Assembly (NCBI GenBank): GCA_965216875.1
Contig: OZ244207.1
Span: 640,001 to 704,000 of the forward strand
Length of the DNA stretch: 64,000 nt
Direction: 5' to 3'
DNA from: Rubripirellula sp.
GTDB taxonomy: Bacteria > Planctomycetota > Planctomycetia > Pirellulales > Pirellulaceae
In this document: in pieces, positions 1 to 19,762 of the stretch
Layout: each line of letters starts with the position of its first letter
How positions within the stretch are numbered: the first letter of the stretch is position 1
Position numbers and translations under genes: made by a program
The notes under the pieces: generated by a model
What the model saw: the letters and a program-made list of their open reading frames with translations, nothing else
The model's database searches: none
What the model was told of the DNA's origin: nothing

Positions 1-839
1 ATGACCCGCAAGACCCTGTTCATCCGGTTGGATTTCGAGGACGTGAAAAGTGCCAGGCTGACTCGCTTGCGATTGTCTGTAACAGCAATGAGTTGCGATT
101 GCTCACGAACGTAGCGGATATCACCGAGGCGGCTCTTGCACTTCTGTCGATGGAATCCGCGGAGGTGGTTGTTGTTAAGTGTGGCGCTCGCGGCGCGTTG
201 GTATGTACAAGCAATGGTATTGAGAAGGTGCCTGCGTTTCGGACTTCGAGTGTCTGGCCGCTGGGCTCCGGGGATGTATTTGCGGCAAACTTTGCACATC
301 AGTGGACTTGTCTCGAGAACGAAGCGGTTGAAAGCGCTCTTGCGGCATCAAAAGCAACCGCCTTCTATTGCCAAGAACGTACGCTTCCAATTCCTTTGAA
401 AGTGGAAGACACGCTAGGAAAAAGCCTGAGTCCGATCGTTCTGAATGATGAAGCAAAGAGGAAGAAAATCTATTTGGCGGGACCGTTCTTCAGCGTTATG
501 GAACGATGGATGATTGAGGAAACACGATCGTTGCTATCGCAATCGGGTTTTGATGTTTTCTCGCCGTTACATGACGTTGGAATTGGGTCAGCAAGCGAAG
601 TTGTCCAGCAAGACCTACGTGGACTCGAAACCTGCGACGGCGTCTTTGCAGTATTGGACAATCTAGATTCGGGCACGCTTTTTGAGGTTGGATACGCACG
701 CGCTAGAGACTTGCCTGTTGTTGGTTATGCGGAAAACGTTGCCGAAGAATCACTAAAGATGCTTGAGGGCACTGACTGCCACATTCATCACGATTTTGTA
801 TCTGCAATCTATAGTCTCCAGTGGGTAATGGGTGAGTAG
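1..839 (+). CDS. PfkB-like carbohydrate/nucleoside kinase fused to a C-terminal nucleoside 2-deoxyribosyltransferase (NDT)-like domain; 5'-partial
   Basis: Frame of ORF 93..839 is open back to base 3 (DPQDPVHP...). PfkB features VVVKCGARGALV and PLGSGDVF (GxGD). NDT features IYLAGPFF, VFSP, DLRGLETCDGVFA and DSGTLFEVGYA. Confidence 0.85.
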   Translation, partial: DPQDPVHPVGFRGREKCQADSLAIVCNSNELRLLTNVADITEAALALLSMESAEVVVVKCGARGALVCTSNGIEKVPAFRTSSVWPLGSGDVFAANFAHQWTCLENEAVESALAASKATAFYCQERTLPIPLKVEDTLGKSLSPIVLNDEAKRKKIYLAGPFFSVMERWMIEETRSLLSQSGFDVFSPLHDVGIGSASEVVQQDLRGLETCDGVFAVLDNLDSGTLFEVGYARARDLPVVGYAENVAEESLKMLEGTDCHIHHDFVSAIYSLQWVMGE

Positions 840-1437
840 TGTGGAACTATTGCTTCTTAGCGGTGGGATCGACTCTGCTTGTCTCGCATTTTGGCGTCGG
901 CCGAAGCACGCAATCACCATTGACTACGGACAAGTCTGTGCGAAGGCCGAGCGTGATGCTTCATCACATTTCTGCCAGCTATTTGGCATCAAACATCACA
1001 CGGTTCGTCTTGATACGGGAATGCTTGGATCGGGTGACCTAGCTGGGCAACCACCTCATGAATTGGCGCCGGAAAGTGAATGGTGGCCGTTCCGAAATCA
1101 GTTACTTCTCACTGTCGCCGCAATAACAGCGGTATCCTTGAGAGTTGATAAGCTCCTACTCGGGACAGTTAGTAGCGACTCATTTCACGCGGACGGGCGA
1201 GTCGATTTTGTATCTGCAGTTGATCGGCTCCTGCAGTTGCAGGAAGGCAATCTTCAAATTGAAGCACCGGCAATTGCAATGGATAGCGCAACGTTAGTCA
1301 AGGAATGTAGGATTCCGTTTTCACATCTCGGATGGGCCCACTCGTGCCATACCAATGACTTGGCGTGCGGACATTGCCGTGGCTGCAACAAACATCGCGA
1401 CGTGATGGAACGCTTGGGCGTATTTGAGCATGGTTAA
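832..1437 (+). CDS. QueC-like PP-loop ATPase (7-cyano-7-deazaguanine synthase family)
   Basis: LLLSGGIDS PP-loop, IDYGQ, WPFRNQLLL and C-terminal Zn cluster CHTNDLACGHCRGC; overlaps the upstream stop. Confidence 0.88.
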   Translation: MSSVELLLLSGGIDSACLAFWRRPKHAITIDYGQVCAKAERDASSHFCQLFGIKHHTVRLDTGMLGSGDLAGQPPHELAPESEWWPFRNQLLLTVAAITAVSLRVDKLLLGTVSSDSFHADGRVDFVSAVDRLLQLQEGNLQIEAPAIAMDSATLVKECRIPFSHLGWAHSCHTNDLACGHCRGCNKHRDVMERLGVFEHG

Positions 1438-2101
1438 CCGTGATCCGTCGCCGCGCAAAGTACGACTTGACTATGAGGAGGCAAGTCTATGCGTTGCGGC
1501 AAAGCAGAATCTCCCTGTGCCAAAGGCGAACAGTGATCGAGCGTTTTTCGATGTTGTCCGCAGCCGCCGGTCTTGCAGGAGTTTTGGTGCGTTGACGGAC
1601 GAGCAACTAGGCTCGCTTTTCTGGTACACAGCCAAGACGACGCGGACTTTGGGATCATGGCAGGGCCGGGCGACGCCTTCGGCAGGTGGCATTCATCCAG
1701 TCGATCTTTTAGTTGTCGATCATTGCGATGAAAGTGTTCGATTGAGAATGTATGATTCGATGTCTCACGCTCTGTCAACTATTCGCATCGACAACGAACC
1801 TGCTGCCCTCTCATTGTTCGAGCGTTTAAATGGAGTTGTTGAGATTCAAAATGGCGCGGCAATTGTATTCGCGGCACAGTTTGAGAAAACAAGAGCGGTG
1901 TATGAGAACGCTGACAGTCTTGTGTGGCGAGATGCTGGTGCGCTACTGTACGCGTTCTACACCGTTTGTGAAGGAGTGGGGCTTAACTGTTGCGGGATGG
2001 GCATTACATGTTCATCAGAAGTTGGAGAAGCGTTAGGGTCGCCACTCTACGAAGGAGTCGGTGGCTGTGCCGTTGGCAGCAAGCAAACCGGAGCAACATA
2101 G
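1430..2101 (+). CDS. SagB/ThcOx-type nitroreductase-fold (FMN) dehydrogenase
   Basis: RRSCRSF FMN-binding motif, RATPSAGGIHPV and WRDAG; ATG at 1430 overlaps the QueC-like stop (track start 1424). Confidence 0.8.
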   Translation: MVNRDPSPRKVRLDYEEASLCVAAKQNLPVPKANSDRAFFDVVRSRRSCRSFGALTDEQLGSLFWYTAKTTRTLGSWQGRATPSAGGIHPVDLLVVDHCDESVRLRMYDSMSHALSTIRIDNEPAALSLFERLNGVVEIQNGAAIVFAAQFEKTRAVYENADSLVWRDAGALLYAFYTVCEGVGLNCCGMGITCSSEVGEALGSPLYEGVGGCAVGSKQTGAT

Positions 2102-2283
2102 GTGTGAGTTGGTCGATGAGACGTCTGCCAAGAAGCCCTTTGTAGCCGTATATAAGTGCCTGGAAGTCGATGTATACGTCCAAAGCTGATGATCGCAACA
2201 TGTTGGTTCGATCAGGAACGGATAGTGATTTGATTCGGACGATTTCTGCGGTTTGTTACAGCAACGATTAGTCGGTGAGCATT

Positions 2284-3315
2284 GTGAAAAGTATTGCGTT
2301 TTTCAACAACAAAGGCGGCGTCGGTAAAACGACGTTGTCGTGCAATATCGCTGCCCATTTTGCTAAGGAACTTGGGAAGCGAGTGCTGGTGATTGATTGT
2401 GATCCTCAGTGCAATGCGTCGCAATTGATTCTATCCGAGGAGCGATGCTTTGATGTTTATCAAGCGGAGTCAGGCGACGATGCATCAACGCTCCTGTCAA
2501 TCCTTCATCCAATTAGCGATGGAGACGGTAGTATCGCGACCGATACAACGCCCGAGCTTTCAAGTCAAAATCGCTTCGCGGTTGATTTGATTCCCGGTCA
2601 CCCTGGAATGTCCGTTGTTGAGGACGTACTAAGTACGGCGTGGAATGATCTGCGGGCGTCTAAGGTCGGTGGGTTTCGCATCACGAACTGGTTCCCGCAA
2701 CTGATGCGTCAATTGCACAATCGTTACGACGTTGCATTCGTTGACCTTGGGCCCAGCCTTGGTCCGTTAACGCGAAGCGTGCTGCTGGGTGCGGACTATT
2801 TCGTTACGCCAATGGGTTGCGACATATTCAGCATAGTTGGGATTCAGAACATCGGTGAATGGCTAGAACGTTGGATTGACGAGTACGGTCGATACCTCGA
2901 GTTTTTTAGACGTGACAATAGCGCTGCTATCAAACGTTTTCAAATCAAAGAGCATCTGTCGATCCAGAACGGTTTTTCCGGTTACACGGTTCTCCAATAC
3001 ATAACGAAGTCACGCGGCGGAGAACGGAGGGCGACCGGTGCTTTCGAGGATATTCTTGAGCAGATACCCGAAGTCATCGAGTCGTCCCTTGGTGGTTTCT
3101 TTATTGATGATTTAACTTTGGGCAACGCACATCTAGGCGACATTCCGAACCTCTTTAGCTTAGTCCCACTTGCCCAGTCGTCACATTCACCTGTGGTTGG
3201 GCTTGAGTCGAGAGACGGATTGGCGGGCGGGCAATACAAACAACAAGAGGTCTATGCGGAATTCATTGAGCGTGTTGGGAATCGGCTTGCGATCAACACG
3301 GGATTTGATGGATGA
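2284..3315 (+). CDS. ParA/Soj-family ATPase
   Basis: Deviant Walker A FFNNKGGVGKTT, VLVIDCDPQCNAS and FVDLGPSLG; likely GTG start at 2284 (track start 2275). Confidence 0.88.
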   Translation: MKSIAFFNNKGGVGKTTLSCNIAAHFAKELGKRVLVIDCDPQCNASQLILSEERCFDVYQAESGDDASTLLSILHPISDGDGSIATDTTPELSSQNRFAVDLIPGHPGMSVVEDVLSTAWNDLRASKVGGFRITNWFPQLMRQLHNRYDVAFVDLGPSLGPLTRSVLLGADYFVTPMGCDIFSIVGIQNIGEWLERWIDEYGRYLEFFRRDNSAAIKRFQIKEHLSIQNGFSGYTVLQYITKSRGGERRATGAFEDILEQIPEVIESSLGGFFIDDLTLGNAHLGDIPNLFSLVPLAQSSHSPVVGLESRDGLAGGQYKQQEVYAEFIERVGNRLAINTGFDG

Positions 3316-4169
3316 GCATCAATTGGCCACAGTCGCTGATCCCTGAGGTCGCCGAGCGGCGTTGCATTATCGTACTGGGTTCTGGTGCAAGTGCGGGTTC
3401 GTTGTCGAGCGATGGAAAAACCCGTCCTCCGAATTGGAGCAAACTCTTGATTGACGCGGCGAGCTTGCTCGCCGATGACGACAAGAAGGTCGTGTTGGCA
3501 CTTGTCGCGAACGAGAAGTACTTGGACGCGGCCGAGATCGTCGTAAACCGGTCGAATGAGGCGGACTACGCCGAGTTTGTTCGAGATACTTTTGTTGAAC
3601 CTCGATTTGAACATTCTGAAATCCACGAACAAGTTCTTGCGCTTGATGCAAAGATTGTTGTTACGACGAACTACGATGACATATACGAAACCTACTGCAA
3701 GACAGGCAAGGGATCGCAAGGATACAATGTATGCCGCTACTATGAGTCCCACGCATTAAATGACGTTCGATCAAAAATGCGGATCATTTTGAAGGCGCAT
3801 GGGTGCGTTTCCGATCCGCAACGCACCGTACTTGCTCGCACTCAATATCACCGAGCTCAGCGTGAGAACTCGCAATTCTTCAATCTTCTCGATTCTCTTT
3901 TCTTAGCCAACACGCTTTTGTTTATTGGCTGCGGGCTTGCGGACCCCGATTTCAATTTGTTGCTTGAGAGCACTAATATCAAGTGTCCCAGCGCGCATCC
4001 ACATTACGCGGTCGTCGAGAATGGCGTTCCGCTGCCATTGCGCCAAGCGACCCGTACCGTTTACAACGTCGAATGCCTGGAATACGAGGCAGGGCAGCAT
4101 CAACAGGTTGTTGATTCGCTTAAGGAGCTAAACAATAAAGTCAGTGGTTGGCGCAGCACTCACTCATAG
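3312..4169 (+). CDS. SIR2-like (SIR2_2) protein, putative NADase
   Basis: IVLGSGASAG, VTTNYDD, LKAHG and LFIGCGLADP motifs; ATGA overlap with the ParA-like stop. Confidence 0.85.
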   Translation: MSINWPQSLIPEVAERRCIIVLGSGASAGSLSSDGKTRPPNWSKLLIDAASLLADDDKKVVLALVANEKYLDAAEIVVNRSNEADYAEFVRDTFVEPRFEHSEIHEQVLALDAKIVVTTNYDDIYETYCKTGKGSQGYNVCRYYESHALNDVRSKMRIILKAHGCVSDPQRTVLARTQYHRAQRENSQFFNLLDSLFLANTLLFIGCGLADPDFNLLLESTNIKCPSAHPHYAVVENGVPLPLRQATRTVYNVECLEYEAGQHQQVVDSLKELNNKVSGWRSTHS

Positions 4170-4742: not shown

Positions 4743-5326
4743 GAGGTCGATTTAGAGGCGGAATCCGTGTCTGTCCGATCTTCCCGGAACTGCGACCGTA
4801 TTTGGAAGAAGCCTGGGACGCGGCGGAAGATGGAGCAACGCGAGTCATCACGCGATACAAGAATCCGAAACAGAACCTGCGAACGCAGCTCGAGCGGATC
4901 ATCACGCGAGCCGGTCATCAGTCCTGGCCGCGATTGTTTCAGAACCTGAGAGCGACCCGCGAAACGGAGTTGATGGCTCGCTTTCCCGCAAAGGATGTCG
5001 CGACCTGGTTGGGCAACAGCGAGCCTGTCGCGATGATGCACTACGCGATGGCGACGAAGGCAAGTTTCGAGGCTGCGAAAACGACTGTCAGTTCGTTCGG
5101 AAGTGACGCCGATGAAGGCGAAGCAAAAAGCGAAGCACGAAATGACGAATCGGGCGAAAATGCGAAGCAAAAAGCTAAGCAGCACCAAACCGAAAAGAAT
5201 GGAGCCAAGTCGCAAAGGCCCGGAAAAAAGCGGGACAATCGCGACTTGGCTCTAGTGGGCTCCACCGCTGACTACAGCGGTAAGCTCCCCCGACAGGGGA
5301 TCAACTGCCGCTCTATTCACCGGTAA
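4733..5326 (+). pseudogene. C-terminal remnant of a tyrosine integrase (older element)
   Basis: WPRLFQNLRATRETEL...WLGNS...HYAM parallels WPKMFVNCRASCR...MGHS...HY of the intact integrase. No N-terminal or core-binding domain is present. Runs into the att repeat. Confidence 0.8.
5283..5297 (+). repeat. att core direct repeat (distal copy) agctcccccgacagg
   Basis: Identical to 16176-16190, which overlaps the tRNA-Asn 3' end. Confidence 0.9.
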
Positions 5327-6032: not shown

Positions 6033-6345
6033 TTTCGCTTTGGCAGTGAGACCGATCTGCGGCAAGCCATGGGCCGATTCCGTGCGGAAGGCGGCGGAGG
6101 CGCGCAAAGCAAACGCACGGGCGAAGCGTAGGCTTGGCTAGAGGCATAGCACTCTACCGACGGTACGACTGGGACGAAATCGAACCGATCTACGGCAAAC
6201 CTTGGGCGGAATCTGTCAAGAAAGCCGCTGCCGCACGCAAGGCGAAGGCAGAGGGACTGAGGAACGACAGCTAGTGTCCGGCTTTTGGTAGTCAATCAGT
6301 TCGCTAGAATTGTCTGCGACAAAATACTCATTGGGGCACGACAGC

Positions 6346-7749
6346 ATGGACCCGACTATCGCAGAGCGGATGACGGAAGAAATCACCGGGAAATCAGTAG
6401 GCGGATGGTCCGTCGGCTCTTTCCTAGGTGCAGGGAAATCAGCATTGGTATTCGAATGTGCCAGGGATGACACAATCGCGGCGTTAAAGGTATTCGACCC
6501 TGACCTTGTAAACAGGTACGGGAAAGATACACAGCTAGAGCGTATTCGCAGAGAATTGTCGCTCGTGGGAAAACGTCATCCAAATCTGGTGCAGATCTAC
6601 GACGGAGGAGAGTGCCCGGATACTGGTTACCTTTTCGTGGTGATGGAGCTGATTCCGGGAAGCAATCTTGAGGACAAGCTAGCCGACGTCCCCCGGGACC
6701 GAATTCCCCCAATAATGTCACAGGTGACATCTGCTGCGATGTACTTGGAACAACTCGACATGGCCCATCGAGATATCAAACCTTCCAACATCGCGATAAC
6801 AGATGACTTTCAGCGGGCGGTACTGATGGATCTCGGAGTACTGCGACCGTTCGGCGAATCAGACTTGACTGACCAAGACGCGAAGGTCTTTGTTGGTACG
6901 CTCCGCTACAGCTCGCCCGAGTTCTTGTATCGAGCCGATGTTGGAACCAAAGAGTGTTGGAAGGCAGTTTCCATCTACCAACTTGGCGGAGTGCTGCACG
7001 ACCTGATCATGCGGAAGCAGCTTTTCCACGACCTCAGCGATCCGTTCAGTTTGCTTGTCGATGCGGTGAAATCACAAAGACCGAACATTTATGCAACAGA
7101 TGTGTCACAAGAGTGGGTCGATCTCGCACGAAATAGCTTGACTAAAGACCCCGAAGCAAGGTTGCGACTTGTTTCCTGGGATGATTTTCTAGTCACGGAT
7201 GAGTCCAATCGGGATAGCTCTGAAGCGATACGAGCCAGAGTGATGAAGAGGCAGCTGGCATCGCGACTACAAGCGACAGGGGAGGGTGATCGGTCCCAAG
7301 AGGCCAACATTCTCACTCACAAGATCAAGCACTTGGCAGAGACGATCGAGAACGCAGTTCACAATCAGTGTGCGGGCGACGACTCTTTCCCTCGCATGTC
7401 CATCACGAGCAACGACAGTCATCCCGTAGTCCTTCGTGTCGAGTTTTGCCCAAGTGACATCCACCTGCTGTCCCATACTATGGTCGCTTACTTCAAGTGT
7501 GAGATCGTCGACGAGGACTCGTTTTCGATCTGTGTGGACGCCTCATCCTTCCTGATTCCCACATCGACCGGCGTTGAACACCCGGCGTATGAACACGATG
7601 TGTTCCGTGGGAGAATAAGTTCTCCGAGCTTGGCCAGAGGGATTTCCGATTACCTTTACCAAGTGATTGATGCCGCCCAAAGCGTGTTTGGGATGGAGAT
7701 TACGGAACCATACGACTTGGGTAGCAGTTCAATGGGGCGCGACGAATGA
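6346..7749 (+). CDS. Hanks-type Ser/Thr protein kinase with uncharacterised C-terminal domain
   Basis: LGAGKSALV, AALKVF, HRDIKPSNI, DLG and GTLRYSSPE; ATG at 6346 (track start 6310). Confidence 0.9.
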   Translation: MDPTIAERMTEEITGKSVGGWSVGSFLGAGKSALVFECARDDTIAALKVFDPDLVNRYGKDTQLERIRRELSLVGKRHPNLVQIYDGGECPDTGYLFVVMELIPGSNLEDKLADVPRDRIPPIMSQVTSAAMYLEQLDMAHRDIKPSNIAITDDFQRAVLMDLGVLRPFGESDLTDQDAKVFVGTLRYSSPEFLYRADVGTKECWKAVSIYQLGGVLHDLIMRKQLFHDLSDPFSLLVDAVKSQRPNIYATDVSQEWVDLARNSLTKDPEARLRLVSWDDFLVTDESNRDSSEAIRARVMKRQLASRLQATGEGDRSQEANILTHKIKHLAETIENAVHNQCAGDDSFPRMSITSNDSHPVVLRVEFCPSDIHLLSHTMVAYFKCEIVDEDSFSICVDASSFLIPTSTGVEHPAYEHDVFRGRISSPSLARGISDYLYQVIDAAQSVFGMEITEPYDLGSSSMGRDE

Positions 7750-8903
7750 GTGGAACGTGGTGGGTCGGACAAAGCGACTTAGACGAAGATCAACTTAAGA
7801 TTATTTCTTTGCCGGAAACCGAGAGCTTCTTGGTCACGGGGCCGCCCGGGTCTGGAAAAACAAACCTTCTGCTGCTTCGAGCGAACTACCTCCATCTGAT
7901 GGGCTATTCCAACATCGCAGTGGTTACGTTTACGCGTTCACTCCGGGAGTTCATCGCAACTGGTGCGACTGCGTATGAGTTTCCAGACTCTCGCATCATG
8001 ACGTGCAACGAGTTTCTTTCCGACTTTCTCAAGCAGTTTGGTCGCAGAGTTTCACGCGATGGTACGTTTGAAGAGGTTCGGCGTCGAATCGCCGCAGAGG
8101 CCCGCGAGGTAGTCGATGAGATGGGCTTGGAAGACGTCTATGAGGCGATCCTGCTGGATGAAGCTCAGGACTACTTGCCCGAAGAAATCGACCTGTTTCG
8201 CCGTCTTGCCGAGCGACTTTGCTGCGTCGCGGATGGCCGACAGCAAATCTATGGGGGAGAGGATCCTCATGCAACGATTAGGGCGTGCGTCGACTCGTCC
8301 CATGAACTCAAGTTCCACTACCGGATCGGACGCTCGATATGCCGAGTTGCCGACGAAATAGCCAAGAGATGGAACGGGTTCGAGCCCATGATACAATCAT
8401 CCATGTACGTCGAGACCGACAACCCGTCGACCGTCGACACGACTCAGTGTGAGACGCTCGATGACCAAGCAGAATTGATTTTGAAGCGGCTGAAGACCCA
8501 GCTGACTGCGTTCCCGGGAGAGTATCTGGGCGTGCTCTGCCCCAAAAATGAGGAAACTGATCAGATTTGGAATTTCATCGCAAGTTCGGATCTTGCCGAG
8601 CATGCTGCCTTGCTGAAGAGTGGTGAAGACTTGATCCAATTGGAAGGCAAGCAAATCGTCGTCTCCACCTTCCACGGAGCAAAAGGTCTTGAGTTCAGGG
8701 CTACACATCTCGCAGCATCCGAGTCATTGCACAGCTTCCCAAATAATCGAAAGATGGCCTTTACCGTCGTCACTAGAACGAAAACCTCATTGTCCGTTTA
8801 TCACTCGAAGGATTTGCACGCCTACTTTGAGTCGGCTTTGAACTCACCAGACCCCGACCACACCCCTCCATCAATAGATGACTTGTTCGGAGGTGGCGTA
8901 TGA
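7746..8903 (+). CDS. Compact UvrD/Rep-like superfamily 1 helicase
   Basis: GPPGSGKT, LLDEAQD, ADGRQQIY, HYR, STFHGAKGLEF and VVTRTK motifs; ATGA overlap with the kinase stop. Confidence 0.88.
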   Translation: MSGTWWVGQSDLDEDQLKIISLPETESFLVTGPPGSGKTNLLLLRANYLHLMGYSNIAVVTFTRSLREFIATGATAYEFPDSRIMTCNEFLSDFLKQFGRRVSRDGTFEEVRRRIAAEAREVVDEMGLEDVYEAILLDEAQDYLPEEIDLFRRLAERLCCVADGRQQIYGGEDPHATIRACVDSSHELKFHYRIGRSICRVADEIAKRWNGFEPMIQSSMYVETDNPSTVDTTQCETLDDQAELILKRLKTQLTAFPGEYLGVLCPKNEETDQIWNFIASSDLAEHAALLKSGEDLIQLEGKQIVVSTFHGAKGLEFRATHLAASESLHSFPNNRKMAFTVVTRTKTSLSVYHSKDLHAYFESALNSPDPDHTPPSIDDLFGGGV

Positions 8904-10297
8904 TTCACTATTTGCAATGTGATCGCAGAGACTTTGCTCAACTGGTTTCCGCCAGAGCCCCCGTTGATGCAAAAGAAGTTGAGACGGCTGTTTTCTTGCG
9001 TGAGATAGAGCGTCGGAAACGCTCTCAAGATACTCTGACATTGGCTTGGCGAAACTCACCATCGACACGCTTTTCCTTACCAAGTTTCGTGGTCGTCGAT
9101 GAGGAGTCCCAGAGAGACTTTCACGCTTGGATTGCCACATACTTTCGCGATATCCAGCCGTTTTCTGCACAGTGTCGGGTACTTACACCAAGTTCTGCCA
9201 GATCGGTGATGGCAGCGTTGCCCATCGACGTGCATGCTCGCCTAGGAGCGGTTGATCTAGCTTTGGTCGTTGCCGAAGTTGCAACATATTCGGCGGGTAA
9301 ATTCGATTTGTCGAAGCTCTCTTTTCCCGCATATGAAAGATCGCTGTCGTTTGCGTTCTCACGAGCGTTGGAGCAATTTGGAGACTTCGATACGCCTAAT
9401 TCGCCCAGCCTGGGCGAGTTGGAGGCCTCTTGGATTAAGGCACGAGAATTGGCACGTGAGCCAGAGTTGTCACTTGAATCGAAAGCCATCACAGAGATTT
9501 GGCAGATCGTACTGAATGGCTTGCTCGTGTCACGCGTTCGCGGCCCGAGCGGAGGTCTGGAGTTTGTAAAAGCACTTCGGATGTTTCGCAAGAGTGGGCG
9601 ATTGCCACGGGGCTTGGTGAACAAATTGCCTTTGGATCTTTTTCCCGGCACACAGTCAACTCTTTTCGAGTTGAACGAACAGTCTAGGGAAAGTCGCGTA
9701 GTCGCATTCGAAGAGGCCGCGATTCACTTGTCTCGTACCACAATGTCGAAACGCACAAAGTCGTTTTTGCTGGGCTTTGTCGCTAGTCGAATCTCACCGG
9801 GAACCCTTAATCACATTTCCGTTCTTTACCCACACGTTGAGCGTTTTCGCGAGTGCCTATTCTGGTTCGGTGTATTTGCTGGACTCGAAAGCGACGCTGG
9901 CATCGCCGATTTTTCGAACGGACTAGGCTGGCTACTTCGAAGAGAGATAGGCCGCAGATCTTCTGTGTTTGACCGCCCGACATGCGATATCAGCATTGAG
10001 GATTTCGAAGTATCAATGATGGGAACAAGAACTAAGAGTCGCAACCTTCACGTGACATCAAACGGGATACTTAAGATTGAGATCTATCCGCTCGTGACAA
10101 CTAACGTAAGGTGGCCGCAAAGTCAGCAAGATATATCTGGCAGTCGAAACGCAACGCGGCACGGACAACTTTCGTCGATGGACGAGGAACGAGACGTCGT
10201 ACTGATGGAACTGCTGTCCAAGCTTGACGACAGCACCAGGCACATCGGCCATATCAGGAAGGATCTGGAGAAACTGATGCGGCGGAGAAAATCGTAG
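8900..10297 (+). CDS. Hypothetical protein (465 aa), probable C-terminal coiled coil
   Basis: Long ORF with ATGA overlap with the helicase stop; no recognisable motif. Confidence 0.75.
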   Translation: MIHYLQCDRRDFAQLVSARAPVDAKEVETAVFLREIERRKRSQDTLTLAWRNSPSTRFSLPSFVVVDEESQRDFHAWIATYFRDIQPFSAQCRVLTPSSARSVMAALPIDVHARLGAVDLALVVAEVATYSAGKFDLSKLSFPAYERSLSFAFSRALEQFGDFDTPNSPSLGELEASWIKARELAREPELSLESKAITEIWQIVLNGLLVSRVRGPSGGLEFVKALRMFRKSGRLPRGLVNKLPLDLFPGTQSTLFELNEQSRESRVVAFEEAAIHLSRTTMSKRTKSFLLGFVASRISPGTLNHISVLYPHVERFRECLFWFGVFAGLESDAGIADFSNGLGWLLRREIGRRSSVFDRPTCDISIEDFEVSMMGTRTKSRNLHVTSNGILKIEIYPLVTTNVRWPQSQQDISGSRNATRHGQLSSMDEERDVVLMELLSKLDDSTRHIGHIRKDLEKLMRRRKS

Positions 10298-16791: not shown

Positions 16792-16979
16792 GAATCTTCA
16801 GCTACCTAGCTATCGCTCTGGAAGTACATCCGTGTTGCTATCACTACTTCTCGCAGCCTACAGGCCGATTTCGCCGATCGCAACGTTTCACCCCCGCCAG
16901 AACACCCTTTTTCGGGGACTGTTTTCGCTAAGGGCGGAATAGTTTCCGGAATCGGCAAGGTTACGCGCGGGGAAGGGGG

Positions 16980-17300
16980 GAACCACGAATCACTCGAATT
17001 ACGCGAATGGTTCGGGAACGTGGTGGAGGGACAACCACGGATTGCTCGGATCGATCGGATGAGAGATGGAGTGGGAGGAATGAGGGGAACCACGAATCAC
17101 TCGAATTGCACGAATGGGACTCGAGGGCGTGGTGATGGAGGAGGAGATGTGGAGGTGGGATGCCGCGGAGCGGCAGGGAGGTGTTCCCACGGGGGACCGT
17201 GGGAACGAGGTGGGGTGAGATGTGGAGGAGAGATGTGGAGGAGAGATGGCCGCGGAGCGGCAGGGAGGTGTTCCCATGGGGACCGTGGGAACGAGGTGGG
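16980..17300. repeat. REP-like intergenic repeats
   Basis: aaccacgaatcactcgaatt x2 and gccgcggagcggcagggaggtgttccca..gggaccgtgggaacgag x2. Confidence 0.75.
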
Positions 17301-17310
17301 TGGCGGTTGG

Positions 17311-17934
17311 TTAGTTGCTGTTGGATCGTTGGGCAGTCTTGATCACGAACAGGTTCTGGTCGAAGAATTCCGTGACGACTCCTGAGACGGTCCATTTGTC
17401 GTCCGATGGGTCATCACGAATCGCCTCAACGACTCTCTGAAGCATCAGGTTTTCACAAACGAGCAACTGCGATGTGAGTCGATTGCCGAGCACCAAGTCG
17501 GCTTGCGGGTCGATCGGTCGCGCCGCGGCGCTCGATCCAGTGAAGAGATTGTTCGTTTGGTTCGCCGTTTCCGGTGGCGCCGCTTTTGCCGATTCAACGG
17601 AAGCTGGCAGGAAGGCCCAGCGACGTCCGATCATGACGACGCGACCTGCTGTCGGTGGCACAAGCGTTCCTTCACGAAGCTGCTTGACCTTCTTCTCTTC
17701 GTCGTCGTCATCTTTGTTCAACCGAGCCGGCTCCTCCTCTTCGACATCAAACGAAGAGGATCCGAACCCGTTGCCGCCGCGATCGAACGGATCTGACGCG
17801 ACCAATGGATCGGTCAGCAACAATGGCGACAGAAAGGTCAAGGTCGCGCAAGCTGCGATCAGCATGCGAAGGTTGGTCGTTGAATAACGCATCGGTGCTT
17901 TTGCCCAAACGATCAAGAGCGGCAGTAACAACAT
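17311..17934 (-). CDS. Hypothetical exported protein
   Basis: Signal-peptide-like N-terminus, host-like coding pattern. Confidence 0.65.
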   Translation of the reverse strand: MLLLPLLIVWAKAPMRYSTTNLRMLIAACATLTFLSPLLLTDPLVASDPFDRGGNGFGSSSFDVEEEEPARLNKDDDDEEKKVKQLREGTLVPPTAGRVVMIGRRWAFLPASVESAKAAPPETANQTNNLFTGSSAAARPIDPQADLVLGNRLTSQLLVCENLMLQRVVEAIRDDPSDDKWTVSGVVTEFFDQNLFVIKTAQRSNSN

Positions 17935-18159
17935 GCAAAACGGCTTTGTTGTAGGGAAACGTGTGACACACGGGTCAGGTAAAAACGTTTCCAGCTTCCT
18001 TGCCGGTCATGGCACTCTTCGTGAGGCCTTGTTGGTTGGATTCCGCCAAATCCGATTGGTTGCGATCGGTCGCCTTTGCGTGGGAGGGTGACGACAAAGG
18101 CGACCGATCGCCAGCGTCCGCGGGAAGTTTTCGTGGCTGCGGACGCCGCGAGTGAACGA

Positions 18160-18456
18160 TCATTCGCCTCGGTATTTCGGGATCGAAAAGGCGTGCAGCG
18201 TGATCACCGCTCCAACGGCAAGCATCGCCAACCCAAGCCAACGCGGTGGGCGTACACGCTTCTTGGGGTTGGGGTACACAAACGAGATCATCGATCCAAC
18301 TCCGGAGTTGTCCGCCACCGGACCACTCTTGGTGACGCGGGCAAGCGTCTCGGTCGCACGTTCGTTGAGCACAAACGATTCAACCATTCGGAATTGGAGC
18401 CCCAGCAGGATCAACAAAATCCCGACGAGGAAATAGCGATTGCGATACATGGACAT
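18160..18456 (-). CDS. Small two-TM membrane protein
   Basis: Two hydrophobic segments in a 98-aa ORF. Confidence 0.65.
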   Translation of the reverse strand: MSMYRNRYFLVGILLILLGLQFRMVESFVLNERATETLARVTKSGPVADNSGVGSMISFVYPNPKKRVRPPRWLGLAMLAVGAVITLHAFSIPKYRGE

Positions 18457-18685
18457 GGGATCGACCCTCTGACTCTGCTACGAGCAACCTGTCGGATGCT
18501 TCGATTACCGGTGTAACAGTAGGCATCGACCCGATCACCGCACCATCTGGAAGACATCCGAGAGGTGATGGGTGAATCCAAACACGCCGGTCGTTTCTCA
18601 GCGAACGGTTTTGAGGGCAGTGCCGGATGTTCGAAGTGACAGTGGTTTGGTTTGGAGGGTGAAACCACGAATCGAACGGATGACA

Positions 18686-18945
18686 CGAATGAAGAGGTGT
18701 GGTTGGTGCCGCGGAGCGGCGAGGAGGGTGTTACCACGGGGACCGTGGGAACAAGGTTCGGGATCGAAGGGATCGCGCGAATGAAGAGGATTGGTTCGTG
18801 CCGCGGAGCGGCGAATAGGGTGTTGCCACGGGGACCGTGGGAACAAGGTTGGGGTTGGGAGGGATCGCGCGAATGAAGAGGTTTGGTTGTGCCGCGGAGC
18901 GGCGAGAAGTGTGTTGCCACGGGGACCGTGGGAACAAGGTTTGGG
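18686..18945. repeat. Three ~92-bp tandem REP-like units
   Basis: cgaatgaagagg...gtgccgcggagcggcga...ccacggggaccgtgggaacaaggtt repeated at ~18686, 18778 and 18870. Confidence 0.8.
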
Positions 18946-18972
18946 ATGGGAGGGAGCGTGGGAGGATGCGTG

Positions 18973-19260
18973 TTATTGAAAGAGGTCGTCGACGAGGCCT
19001 CGCATTGAATCGCGGAAGCTTGCCAGTGACGCGTCTTCGAGGATTTCAGATTGATCGCTCTTCATGATCGCGGCCGCAAGCGGCTTGTGCTGCTGCCAGT
19101 CACTGAGATTGTATTGGCGAACGTCGACGTACACGTCTTTCAAGTTGTTGGAAACCTTAGGCACAAGCGATGTGCCGTTGTTGGTGCGCACGATGTGGTA
19201 ATGCATCGCGATGTACAACATGAACGCGCCGCAAAGCATCCCTGCAATAAACTGTTTCAT
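18973..19260 (-). CDS. Hypothetical protein with N-terminal TM segment
   Basis: 95-aa ORF MKQFIAGMLCGAFMLYIAMHYHIV. Confidence 0.7.
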   Translation of the reverse strand: MKQFIAGMLCGAFMLYIAMHYHIVRTNNGTSLVPKVSNNLKDVYVDVRQYNLSDWQQHKPLAAAIMKSDQSEILEDASLASFRDSMRGLVDDLFQ

Positions 19261-19420
19261 AACGTCGTTTCACATTCGTGAGCGTTGAAAAACCTGTCAG
19301 TCCGTTTGTAGTGGGCAACGACCGCCTGAGACAAGAGAAGGATCGCCGCTGCAGAGGAGTTCGCGTGAGCCGACGTCAAATGCCGCATCGGTGAATTGCG
19401 CGTGGTGCTGAAGAGCGCGT

Positions 19421-19745
19421 GGTTGAGAAAGGGTTGAGAAAGGGTTGAGAAGGGAGGAAGTGGGTGGGGCGGAAGGGGAAGGGGTGGATGGCCACGAAAA
19501 ACGCGAAGAGCCACGAAATGGAAAGAAGGTGGTTGGGTGGAATCGGGGACTCGTGGCCTCGTCCACTACTGAAGAGGTGGGGTGAAAGGGGGAAGGGGGA
19601 TGGCCATGAAAAGCACGAAGAGTCACGAAAAGAAAGGAGGGTGGTTGGGTGAAATCGGGGACTCGTGGCCTCGTCCACTACTGAAGAGGGTGGGCGGTTG
19701 GGAGGTGGTTGAGCGCGTGGGGACTCGTGGCCTCGTCCACTACGG
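19421..19745. repeat. Intergenic repeats: ggttgagaaag x3 and GTAG-type REP ggactcgtggcctcgtccactac x3
   Basis: Direct reading; same REP family as 56872-56924. Confidence 0.8.
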
Positions 19746-19762
19746 GGGTGTTGGACGACGTG

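Follow-up and report, generated by a model that had tools for sequence, protein, structure and literature searches.

A mobile five-gene cassette around a Cluster 4 QueC enzyme, a candidate system for conjugating a purine-like base to a small HIRAN-fold protein

In type IV CBASS, a group of signalling systems that act against phages through cyclic oligonucleotides, the cGAS/DncV-like nucleotidyltransferases (CD-NTases) begin with M(G/S)G(G/S)GG and carry a base on residue 2 (10.1101/2025.04.06.647259). The QueC-family enzyme Cap9, which deazaguanylates this tail, holds the base by R86, Y115 and D117, and Wassarman et al. (10.1101/2025.04.06.647259) propose that a ribose might be attached at the free N9 of the base or that the base might be built into nucleic acid, with Cap11 undoing the modification. 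In qatABCD, QatB is a helical protein with a disordered, conserved N-terminal tail and an essential MGTS tip, while the QueC-family enzyme QatC spans ~400 amino acids and has a remodelled site (PMC13279940, PMC13376578). For both systems, the fate, target and reason of the base tag stand as an open question. A further QueC group (PF06508), “Cluster 4”, was delineated by Libby et al. 2026 (PMC13329287), who report a neighbouring PfkB kinase fused to a nucleoside 2'-deoxyribosyltransferase (PfkB-NDT) in 89% and, in the supplement, a nitroreductase in 22.6%, and suggest a role in purine salvage or regulation. Here we analyze a Cluster 4 locus in a 64,000-nucleotide stretch of a Rubripirellula sp. 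genome (contig OZ244207.1, hereafter C1; the whole stretch, C1:640001-704000, is referred to as the window), where QueC belongs to a five-gene mobile cassette. In our reading, to which we give about an even chance, the N-terminal Ser of a small HIRAN-fold protein receives from QueC a carboxylated purine-like base, for which 7-carboxy-7-deazaguanine (CDG) is the likeliest candidate, and this conjugation probably serves anti-phage defence.

The original prediction, made from the letters of the window, described an operon of three genes at its left edge, each overlapping the next. We recovered all three (PfkB::NDT with its stop at 839, the QueC-like gene at 832-1437 and the nitroreductase gene at 1424-2101), and their translations contain the motifs GSGD, DSGTLFEVG and SGGIDS along with a four-Cys zinc site. 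The upstream part had been placed beyond the window, and reading the DNA to the left of base 1 indeed yielded the rest of PfkB::NDT (401 amino acids in full) and two further co-directional cassette genes. The features are as follows, L001 being the window's own locus:

C1:638436-639269 (L001:16436-17269), ~0.7-1.6 kb left of base 1, plus strand: OGG2-like helix-hairpin-helix DNA glycosylase/lyase, 277 amino acids (Pfam Ogg-HhH, E=4.2e-16)
C1:639296-639637 (L001:17296-17637), ~0.4-0.7 kb left of base 1, plus strand: small HIRAN-fold protein, 113 amino acids, with a Gly-rich tail starting Met-Ser-Gly; predicted tag acceptor
Window 1-839 (3' part; start at C1:639634, 367 bases left of base 1), plus strand: PfkB kinase::NDT fusion, 401 amino acids (Pfam PfkB and Nuc_deoxyrib_tr)
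Window 832-1437, plus strand: QueC-family PP-loop enzyme of Cluster 4, 201 amino acids (Pfam QueC)
Window 1424-2101, plus strand: SagB/ThcOx-type flavin mononucleotide (FMN) oxidase of nitroreductase fold, 225 amino acids (top fold match ThcOx; Pfam Nitroreductase)
Window 5284-5297, no strand assigned: attachment-site-like copy of a tRNA-Asn 3' end (14-mer found three times in the genome, integrase remnant adjoining), the right boundary of the cassette element

Profile searches agreed with the families originally named, all four matching above the curated Pfam cut-offs (PfkB E=1.5e-12, Nuc_deoxyrib_tr E=1.5e-19, QueC E=4.2e-23, Nitroreductase E=1e-11). Promoter and terminator scans stayed at chance level.

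The case for a protein conjugate starts from the small protein. Its predicted structure has a predicted local distance difference test score (pLDDT) of 87 with a low-confidence 20-residue tail, and the best fold matches are 3k2y (Z=12.7, root-mean-square deviation (rmsd) 2.0, 89 aligned residues) and the HIRAN domain of HLTF (Z=9.1, rmsd 2.5, 87 aligned); the nearest named Atlas cluster is HIRAN at 0.84, which we take as a lead only. The family-profile search gave the protein no match above cut-off, and no significant sequence match was found in PDB. An M-S-G start was found in 113 of the 120 listed database relatives with gene-caller starts (M-T-G in one more), compared to 3 of 120 relatives of QueC used as a control, the profile having included the tail and thereby biased the set in favour of tailed proteins. 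When representatives at 50% identity are considered (the best 150 of 1,561), the start is SG in 115, TG in 2, SS in 5, GG in 7 and CG in 1, and 13 of the remaining 20 contain an internal M-S-G. The full CBASS acceptor motif M(G/S)G(G/S)GG is present in this small protein, in 104 of the 120 database relatives and in 42 of 77 proteins from the loci described below; conservation is limited to the first 2-5 residues of the tail. A TTG codon five codons upstream, which would give a Gly tip, was rejected as the start on two grounds: the relatives begin with the Met that precedes Ser-Gly, and, in the 80 proteins for which 10 codons could be read upstream, Gly accounts for 10% of residues ahead of the chosen start and for 43% beyond it. 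From sequence and by analogy, the conserved Ser-Gly tip is likely the counterpart of known QueC acceptor tails, i.e., the predicted acceptor. Because the tail matches these acceptor tails, we favour a base-to-protein conjugate over the free modified nucleotide first envisaged for three genes, and revise the unit to five genes including the tailed small protein. Separately, C22 and C83 of the HIRAN-fold domain (mature numbering; L001:17299-17634) are invariant in 68 of 68 sequences.

The QueC enzyme retains the ATP loop and the zinc site, and R88, H119 and D121 are invariant (68/68). In canonical QueC, the aligned residues are R and Y-x-D; as we infer through this enzyme, R88, H119 and D121 occupy the positions of R86, Y115 and D117 in Cap9, against which the protein matches in PDB (9nto, E=1.1e-4). 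By analogy with Cap9 acting on CdnD, we find fairly probable a first step in which, after removal of the initiator Met, QueC activates the base by adenylation and joins it to the amine of Ser through an amide.

Next, we evaluated how stable this gene set is across genomes. Scanning species genomes with QueC as seed, we confirmed 173 relatives and retained the best 80; to these we added 4 viral contigs, 12 of 24 plasmid matches, the best 80 of 563 metagenome matches and the window's own locus, for a total of 177 loci. In the best 80 of the 173, profiles detected PfkB-NDT at all loci but one (79), the small protein and the oxidase at 77 each and the glycosylase at 74, and contig ends cut 3 of the 6 incomplete loci; the small-protein alignment proved too variable for contig scanning. 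Among 108 loci with full flanks, 87 had all five genes, 14 missed the oxidase alone, 4 the oxidase and glycosylase, and 3 the small protein. The core of the cassette is the small protein, PfkB-NDT and QueC, found together in 105 of the 108, with the glycosylase present in 102. The glycosylase gene sits upstream in 73 loci, where it is co-directional, and downstream in 70, where it is convergent; in one locus it has another position. Thus the three genes first noted do co-occur, nearly invariantly, across phyla, and the loci are neither housekeeping queuosine nor RiPP (ribosomally made peptide that is modified after translation) clusters, the two settings that had been named as arguing against a specialized role. 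Several variations on the theme were observed. In haloarchaeal plasmid loci (L094:4119-4778, L095:3691-4779, L096:4146-4781), HIRAN-like domains occur in tandem and the tip is Gly or Cys; neither oxidase nor glycosylase was found near these loci (with only 1.9 kb downstream in L096). Some oxidase-less loci (L090:6615-8155, L174, L098) encode a second small protein, and two of these, L090 and L098, also have a second PfkB-NDT. Near 34 of the 177 loci (e.g., L097:8032-8700) there is a gene for a short Dam-like (D12) methyltransferase, always directly upstream of the glycosylase gene; the window's own locus lacks it. Genes for dGTPases, one a weak match, are found near 21 of the 177 (L097, L099, L101, L103, L033 and others); NDT could draw its deoxyribose from their product, deoxyguanosine, or the genes could simply share the islands.

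The oxidase offers a second line of evidence. Its top fold match is ThcOx (E=1e-12, template-modelling (TM) score 0.77), which is also the closest by profile, with BmdC and McbC matched as well, and Y160, invariant in 56 of 56 sequences, aligns to the Tyr of the ThcOx K-Y pair; in McbC, Tyr202 has been described as catalytic. The SagB-type label first given to this gene holds at the level of fold, whereas the TIGR03605 match (E=2.5e-13, 49.9 bits) falls below the 78.4-bit cut-off. The closest solved structures are azoline oxidases, and the cassette oxidase is probably of this type. To compare it with the tip, we dropped 36 of the 177 loci (tail truncated or missing, short QueC match or <900 bases downstream) and two without a readable start; the start of L178 was set by hand to an upstream Met-Ser, and the start rule favoured Gly/Ser-rich starts, with Gly scored above Ser. 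All 119 oxidase-bearing loci had a tip of Ser (114) or Thr (5), whereas the 20 oxidase-less loci had Gly (10), Cys (1), Ala (1) or Ser (8). On the QueC tree the oxidase changes five times and the tip three times, the latter always in oxidase-less branches, whose share of the tree length is 21%. This association would be expected if the oxidase needs a beta-hydroxy residue, and we treat it as a lead rather than a test. As a second step, we tentatively propose that another ATP turnover, i.e., QueC's normal amide dehydration, closes the Ser hydroxyl onto the amide to give an oxazoline, which the oxidase would convert into an oxazole, locking the tag; we place this cyclization and oxidation below an even chance. 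Oxidation would be optional, because some loci lack the oxidase.

For the fusion protein, PfkB D214 and NDT Y280, H313, D327, D345 and E351 are invariant (56/56). We take the catalytic roles of D214, Y280, D327, D345 and E351 from the ribokinase and NDT families, D345 as a presumed sign of a preference for nucleosides rather than nucleotides, and the H313 position as one presumably occupied by His in hydrolase-type NDTs. In the glycosylase, K191 and D210, invariant in 55 of 55 sequences, align to the residues mutated in PDB 9o02/9o01; an invariant Trp replaces the OGG2 His four residues after the catalytic Lys, and the match to the OGG2 equivalog NF002305 stays below cut-off (70 versus 183 bits). 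Downstream of tagging, a third step would have NDT, in place of the TGT-like (tRNA-guanine transglycosylase) Cap10, add deoxyribose at the free N9 and PfkB phosphorylate it; the resulting deoxynucleotide, tethered to the protein, would jam phage DNA under replication or become part of it. We consider this deoxyribosylation and phosphorylation less likely than not. Doubtful to a similar degree is a fourth step, in which the glycosylase would excise the tagged base, either as a safety brake or to cut marked DNA. In its fullest form, QueC would be both ligase and cyclodehydratase, making a deazaguanine-Ser oxazole, NDT-kinase would turn the protein into a deoxynucleotide whose insertion into phage DNA would create a programmed crosslink between DNA and protein, and the glycosylase would be the eraser. 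We rate this version as improbable; if true, both the protein modification and the mode of immunity would be new.

The location of the cassette in a tRNA-Asn island, part of the original prediction, is borne out by the genome sequence. The 14-bp tRNA-Asn 3' end occurs exactly three times in the 8.26-Mb genome (~0.18 expected), at C1:637332-637345 (~2.7 kb left of the window), window 5284 and window 16177, marking two elements in tandem. In the left one, of ~7.95 kb, lie the five cassette genes, a ParA gene, a SIR2 gene and an integrase remnant detected by tblastn (E=3.6e-8); the right one encodes a kinase and a helicase and has an integrase-like gene of full length. A profile search of 60 related genomes found the PfkB-NDT gene in none. 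Cassette relatives were found in 24 plasmid records and 4 viral contigs, hosts of the 80 species loci span 11 named bacterial phyla, to which cyanobacterial and haloarchaeal plasmids are to be added, and the family comprises 1,153 clusters at 50% identity with E<=1e-10. In L002 (L002:1539-11721) the cassette lies between phage portal and terminase genes, and viral contigs such as L087 carry it as cargo. No cassette match was found among INPHARED phages, nor was there a DNA-level match in E. coli genomes when one relative's cassette was used as query, a search that is insensitive. Overall, the cassette is a patchy, mobile and widespread unit. Around the island, we noted arrays of minus-strand tRNA genes just upstream (C1:591000-594748 with 14 genes, 606699-608012 with 3 and 628016-632638 with 31) and several direct-repeat families of 29-112 bp to the right of tRNA-Asn (window 16970-19754).

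We then examined the genes flanking the cassette in other genomes. Of 345 flanking open reading frames (ORFs), 125 were scanned with Pfam, 121 with PADLOC and 99 with neither. At E<1e-25, PADLOC matched 15 of the 121 ORFs, in 11 of 27 loci (Gabija, Shango, short Argonaute, dGTPase, PD-Lambda-1, restriction-modification and others), compared to 2 of 105 ORFs and 2 of 18 stretches in a control made of evenly spaced stretches of this one genome (105 of 118 ORFs scanned; p=0.004 for ORFs, 0.045 for loci). The enrichment in defence genes called for by the original prediction is thus seen, and its proposal of a defence system stands in so far as the cassette is patchy, mobile and located among such genes; the role itself we infer from this setting, and overall we find it somewhat probable. 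PADLOC 2023 contains no model for four of the five cassette genes at E<=0.01. Other candidate defence genes adjoin the cassettes. In L022, a qatABC-like operon (KAP NTPase, a 281-amino-acid gene and a 423-amino-acid QueC-like gene; L022:1262-5168) lies next to the cassette. In the window's own element, a ParA-family ATPase gene overlaps a SIR2_2 gene (window 2275-4169; best PADLOC match ThsA, partial), and the pair is probably a separate two-gene defence candidate. The right element holds overlapping genes for a Ser/Thr kinase, a short UvrD-like helicase and a 465-amino-acid protein without family match (window 6310-10297), a candidate defence operon. We rejected both sets as cassette parts, as neither ParA (2275-3315) and SIR2 (3312-4169) nor the kinase, helicase and 465-amino-acid genes had a tblastn match in the 80 loci.

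Several observations weigh against the conjugation of a deazaguanine to the small protein in defence. An island location would suit any mobile cargo, the PADLOC control comes from one genome and is unmatched for mobility, and no recognizable toxic effector was found among the cassette genes. In QueC, His replaces the base-stacking Tyr, which may mean a different base; only 8 of 56 oxidase sequences retain the Lys of the K-Y pair; and none of 68 small proteins matched Pfam HIRAN, leaving DNA-end binding without sequence support. For the tip, eight oxidase-less loci retain Ser, and independent pairs of oxidase and Ser/Thr tip number one on well-supported branches and three on all branches, which cannot reach significance. 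Substrate supply is also uneven. Elsewhere in its genome, this host has a separate canonical queC along with two genes resembling queD and one, scoring below cut-off, resembling queE; the queD-like and queE-like genes are >1 Mb from the cassette, in line with the original remark that the window has no queD or queE. Across hosts, canonical queC was found in 38 of 50 genomes and lacking in 12, of which 8 also gave no QueE-like match with two models, versus 1 of 6 queC-positive controls; several of these genomes are incomplete. A Vut_1-family gene, presumably of a queuosine-precursor transporter family, lies near three loci (L024:4634-5239, L026, L047).

With 8 of 50 hosts having neither queC nor a QueE-like gene, host-made CDG is not always guaranteed, which keeps alive a reading in which the same tagging runs in the reverse direction: the glycosylase and NDT would set free a modified base that belonged to the DNA or nucleotides of an invading phage, and this base, attached to the small protein by QueC, would signal infection. 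The invariant H313 of NDT, at a position that is presumably His in hydrolase-type enzymes, would fit such a release, viral DNA may bear 2'-deoxy-CDG (dCDG) and other deazaguanines (10.1101/2023.04.13.536721), and anti-phage glycosylases have been described as acting on deazaguanine-modified DNA. However, the cassette has no downstream effector to receive a signal, the glycosylase is absent from 4 of the 105 loci with the three core genes and from the vicinity of all three haloarchaeal loci examined, and the fused kinase would fit nucleotide building better than base release. We give this reversed flow a low chance.

A small chance remains for a small-molecule pathway, in which the product would be a free modified nucleotide or a short azole-containing nucleoside-peptide, and the small protein a carrier or precursor whose tip is released later. 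A kinase, an N-glycosidase, an amide ligase and an azoline oxidase are indeed biosynthetic enzymes, and the Gly/Ser-rich tail resembles azole-peptide precursors, but the five genes include no protease, transporter or YcaO, the tail is conserved at its very tip only, and a DNA glycosylase accompanies nearly all loci. That same glycosylase is central to a DNA-damage or addiction module, which we regard as quite improbable: it would make abasic sites that the Ser tip captures, much as SRAP/HMCES proteins capture abasic sites through an N-terminal Cys, or the tagged protein would be an antitoxin plugging the glycosylase. The HIRAN fold, the intact active-site residues of the glycosylase, the Ser, Thr or Cys tips and the Dam-like methylase beside the glycosylase gene would all suit this module, yet Gly-tipped versions retain the glycosylase (L089 clade), glycosylase-less versions retain the tip, and QueC would have no role in abasic-site capture. 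Finally, purine salvage or regulation is very improbable in our view, since the salvage-like pair of NDT and nucleoside kinase, the helix-turn-helix gene near 45 of the 177 loci and the statement to this effect for Cluster 4 (PMC13329287) leave the Ser-Gly tip, glycosylase, oxidase, absence from the 60 relatives and defence neighbours unexplained.

Taken together, these data place the cassette in QueC Cluster 4, and neither in type IV CBASS nor in qatABCD. This QueC contains both SGGxDS and CH(x)5CxxCxGCxK, the Cluster 4 motif YGQ(x)6E appears as conserved Y32-G-Q and E40 with a spacing of five, one fewer than printed, and the PfkB-NDT fusion is in the operon at 79 of 80 loci. The available text of the Cluster 4 account (PMC13329287) includes no glycosylase (PF22175 has zero occurrences in the supplement text), no tailed small protein and no experiment on the cluster. 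Hence, of the statement that no named system has this combination, the part concerning QueC and PfkB-NDT does not hold, as that pair is already in print, while a published account of the five-gene cassette was not found; among the literature found, which includes PMC6395948, 10.1101/2025.10.29.685425 and 10.1101/2023.04.13.536721, only Libby et al. 2026 treats the clade, and with the focus on open-access papers an earlier name is possible. If the conjugation reading is true, a published QueC cluster would be reassigned from salvage to protein modification. Moreover, with neither cyclase nor nuclease, a 113-amino-acid acceptor and an enzyme chemistry that predicts specific masses for each step, the cassette would make the fate of a base tag directly testable.

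Compared with known systems, the enzyme differs from canonical QueC (YxQxHxxE, VPxRN, YPDC, C(x)8CxxCxxC) in having WPFRN and HADG, in scoring 72.4 against the 150.3-bit cut-off of TIGR00364, and in not lying beside queD or queE. With azole RiPP and non-ribosomal peptide synthetase oxidases (ThcOx, McbC, BmdC), the cassette oxidase shares fold and catalytic Tyr; unlike in azole RiPP clusters, no YcaO cyclodehydratase match or leader-core precursor is found in the cassette, and the catalytic Lys is mostly absent. The likeness to qatABCD lies in a QueC-family enzyme beside a small partner with a conserved, disordered N-terminal tail, whereas the KAP ATPase QatA, the TatD protein QatD, an extended QatC (QueC here has 201 amino acids) and an MGTS-tipped QatB are all absent. 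Resemblance to Cap9, Cap10 and Cap11 of type IV CBASS comprises a minimal QueC in which the base-binding residues have counterparts, a partner whose tail reads M(G/S)G(G/S)GG and an OGG-like glycosylase (Cap11). In contrast to type IV CBASS, CD-NTase and effector are absent from the five genes and five further window ORFs scanned, no cassette gene matches the TGT family (Cap10), the predicted acceptor has a HIRAN fold and offers Ser in place of Gly, and PfkB-NDT and an azoline-type oxidase are added. By analogy, the cassette thus likely works like the tagging step of type IV CBASS and qatABCD, followed by a different downstream chemistry.

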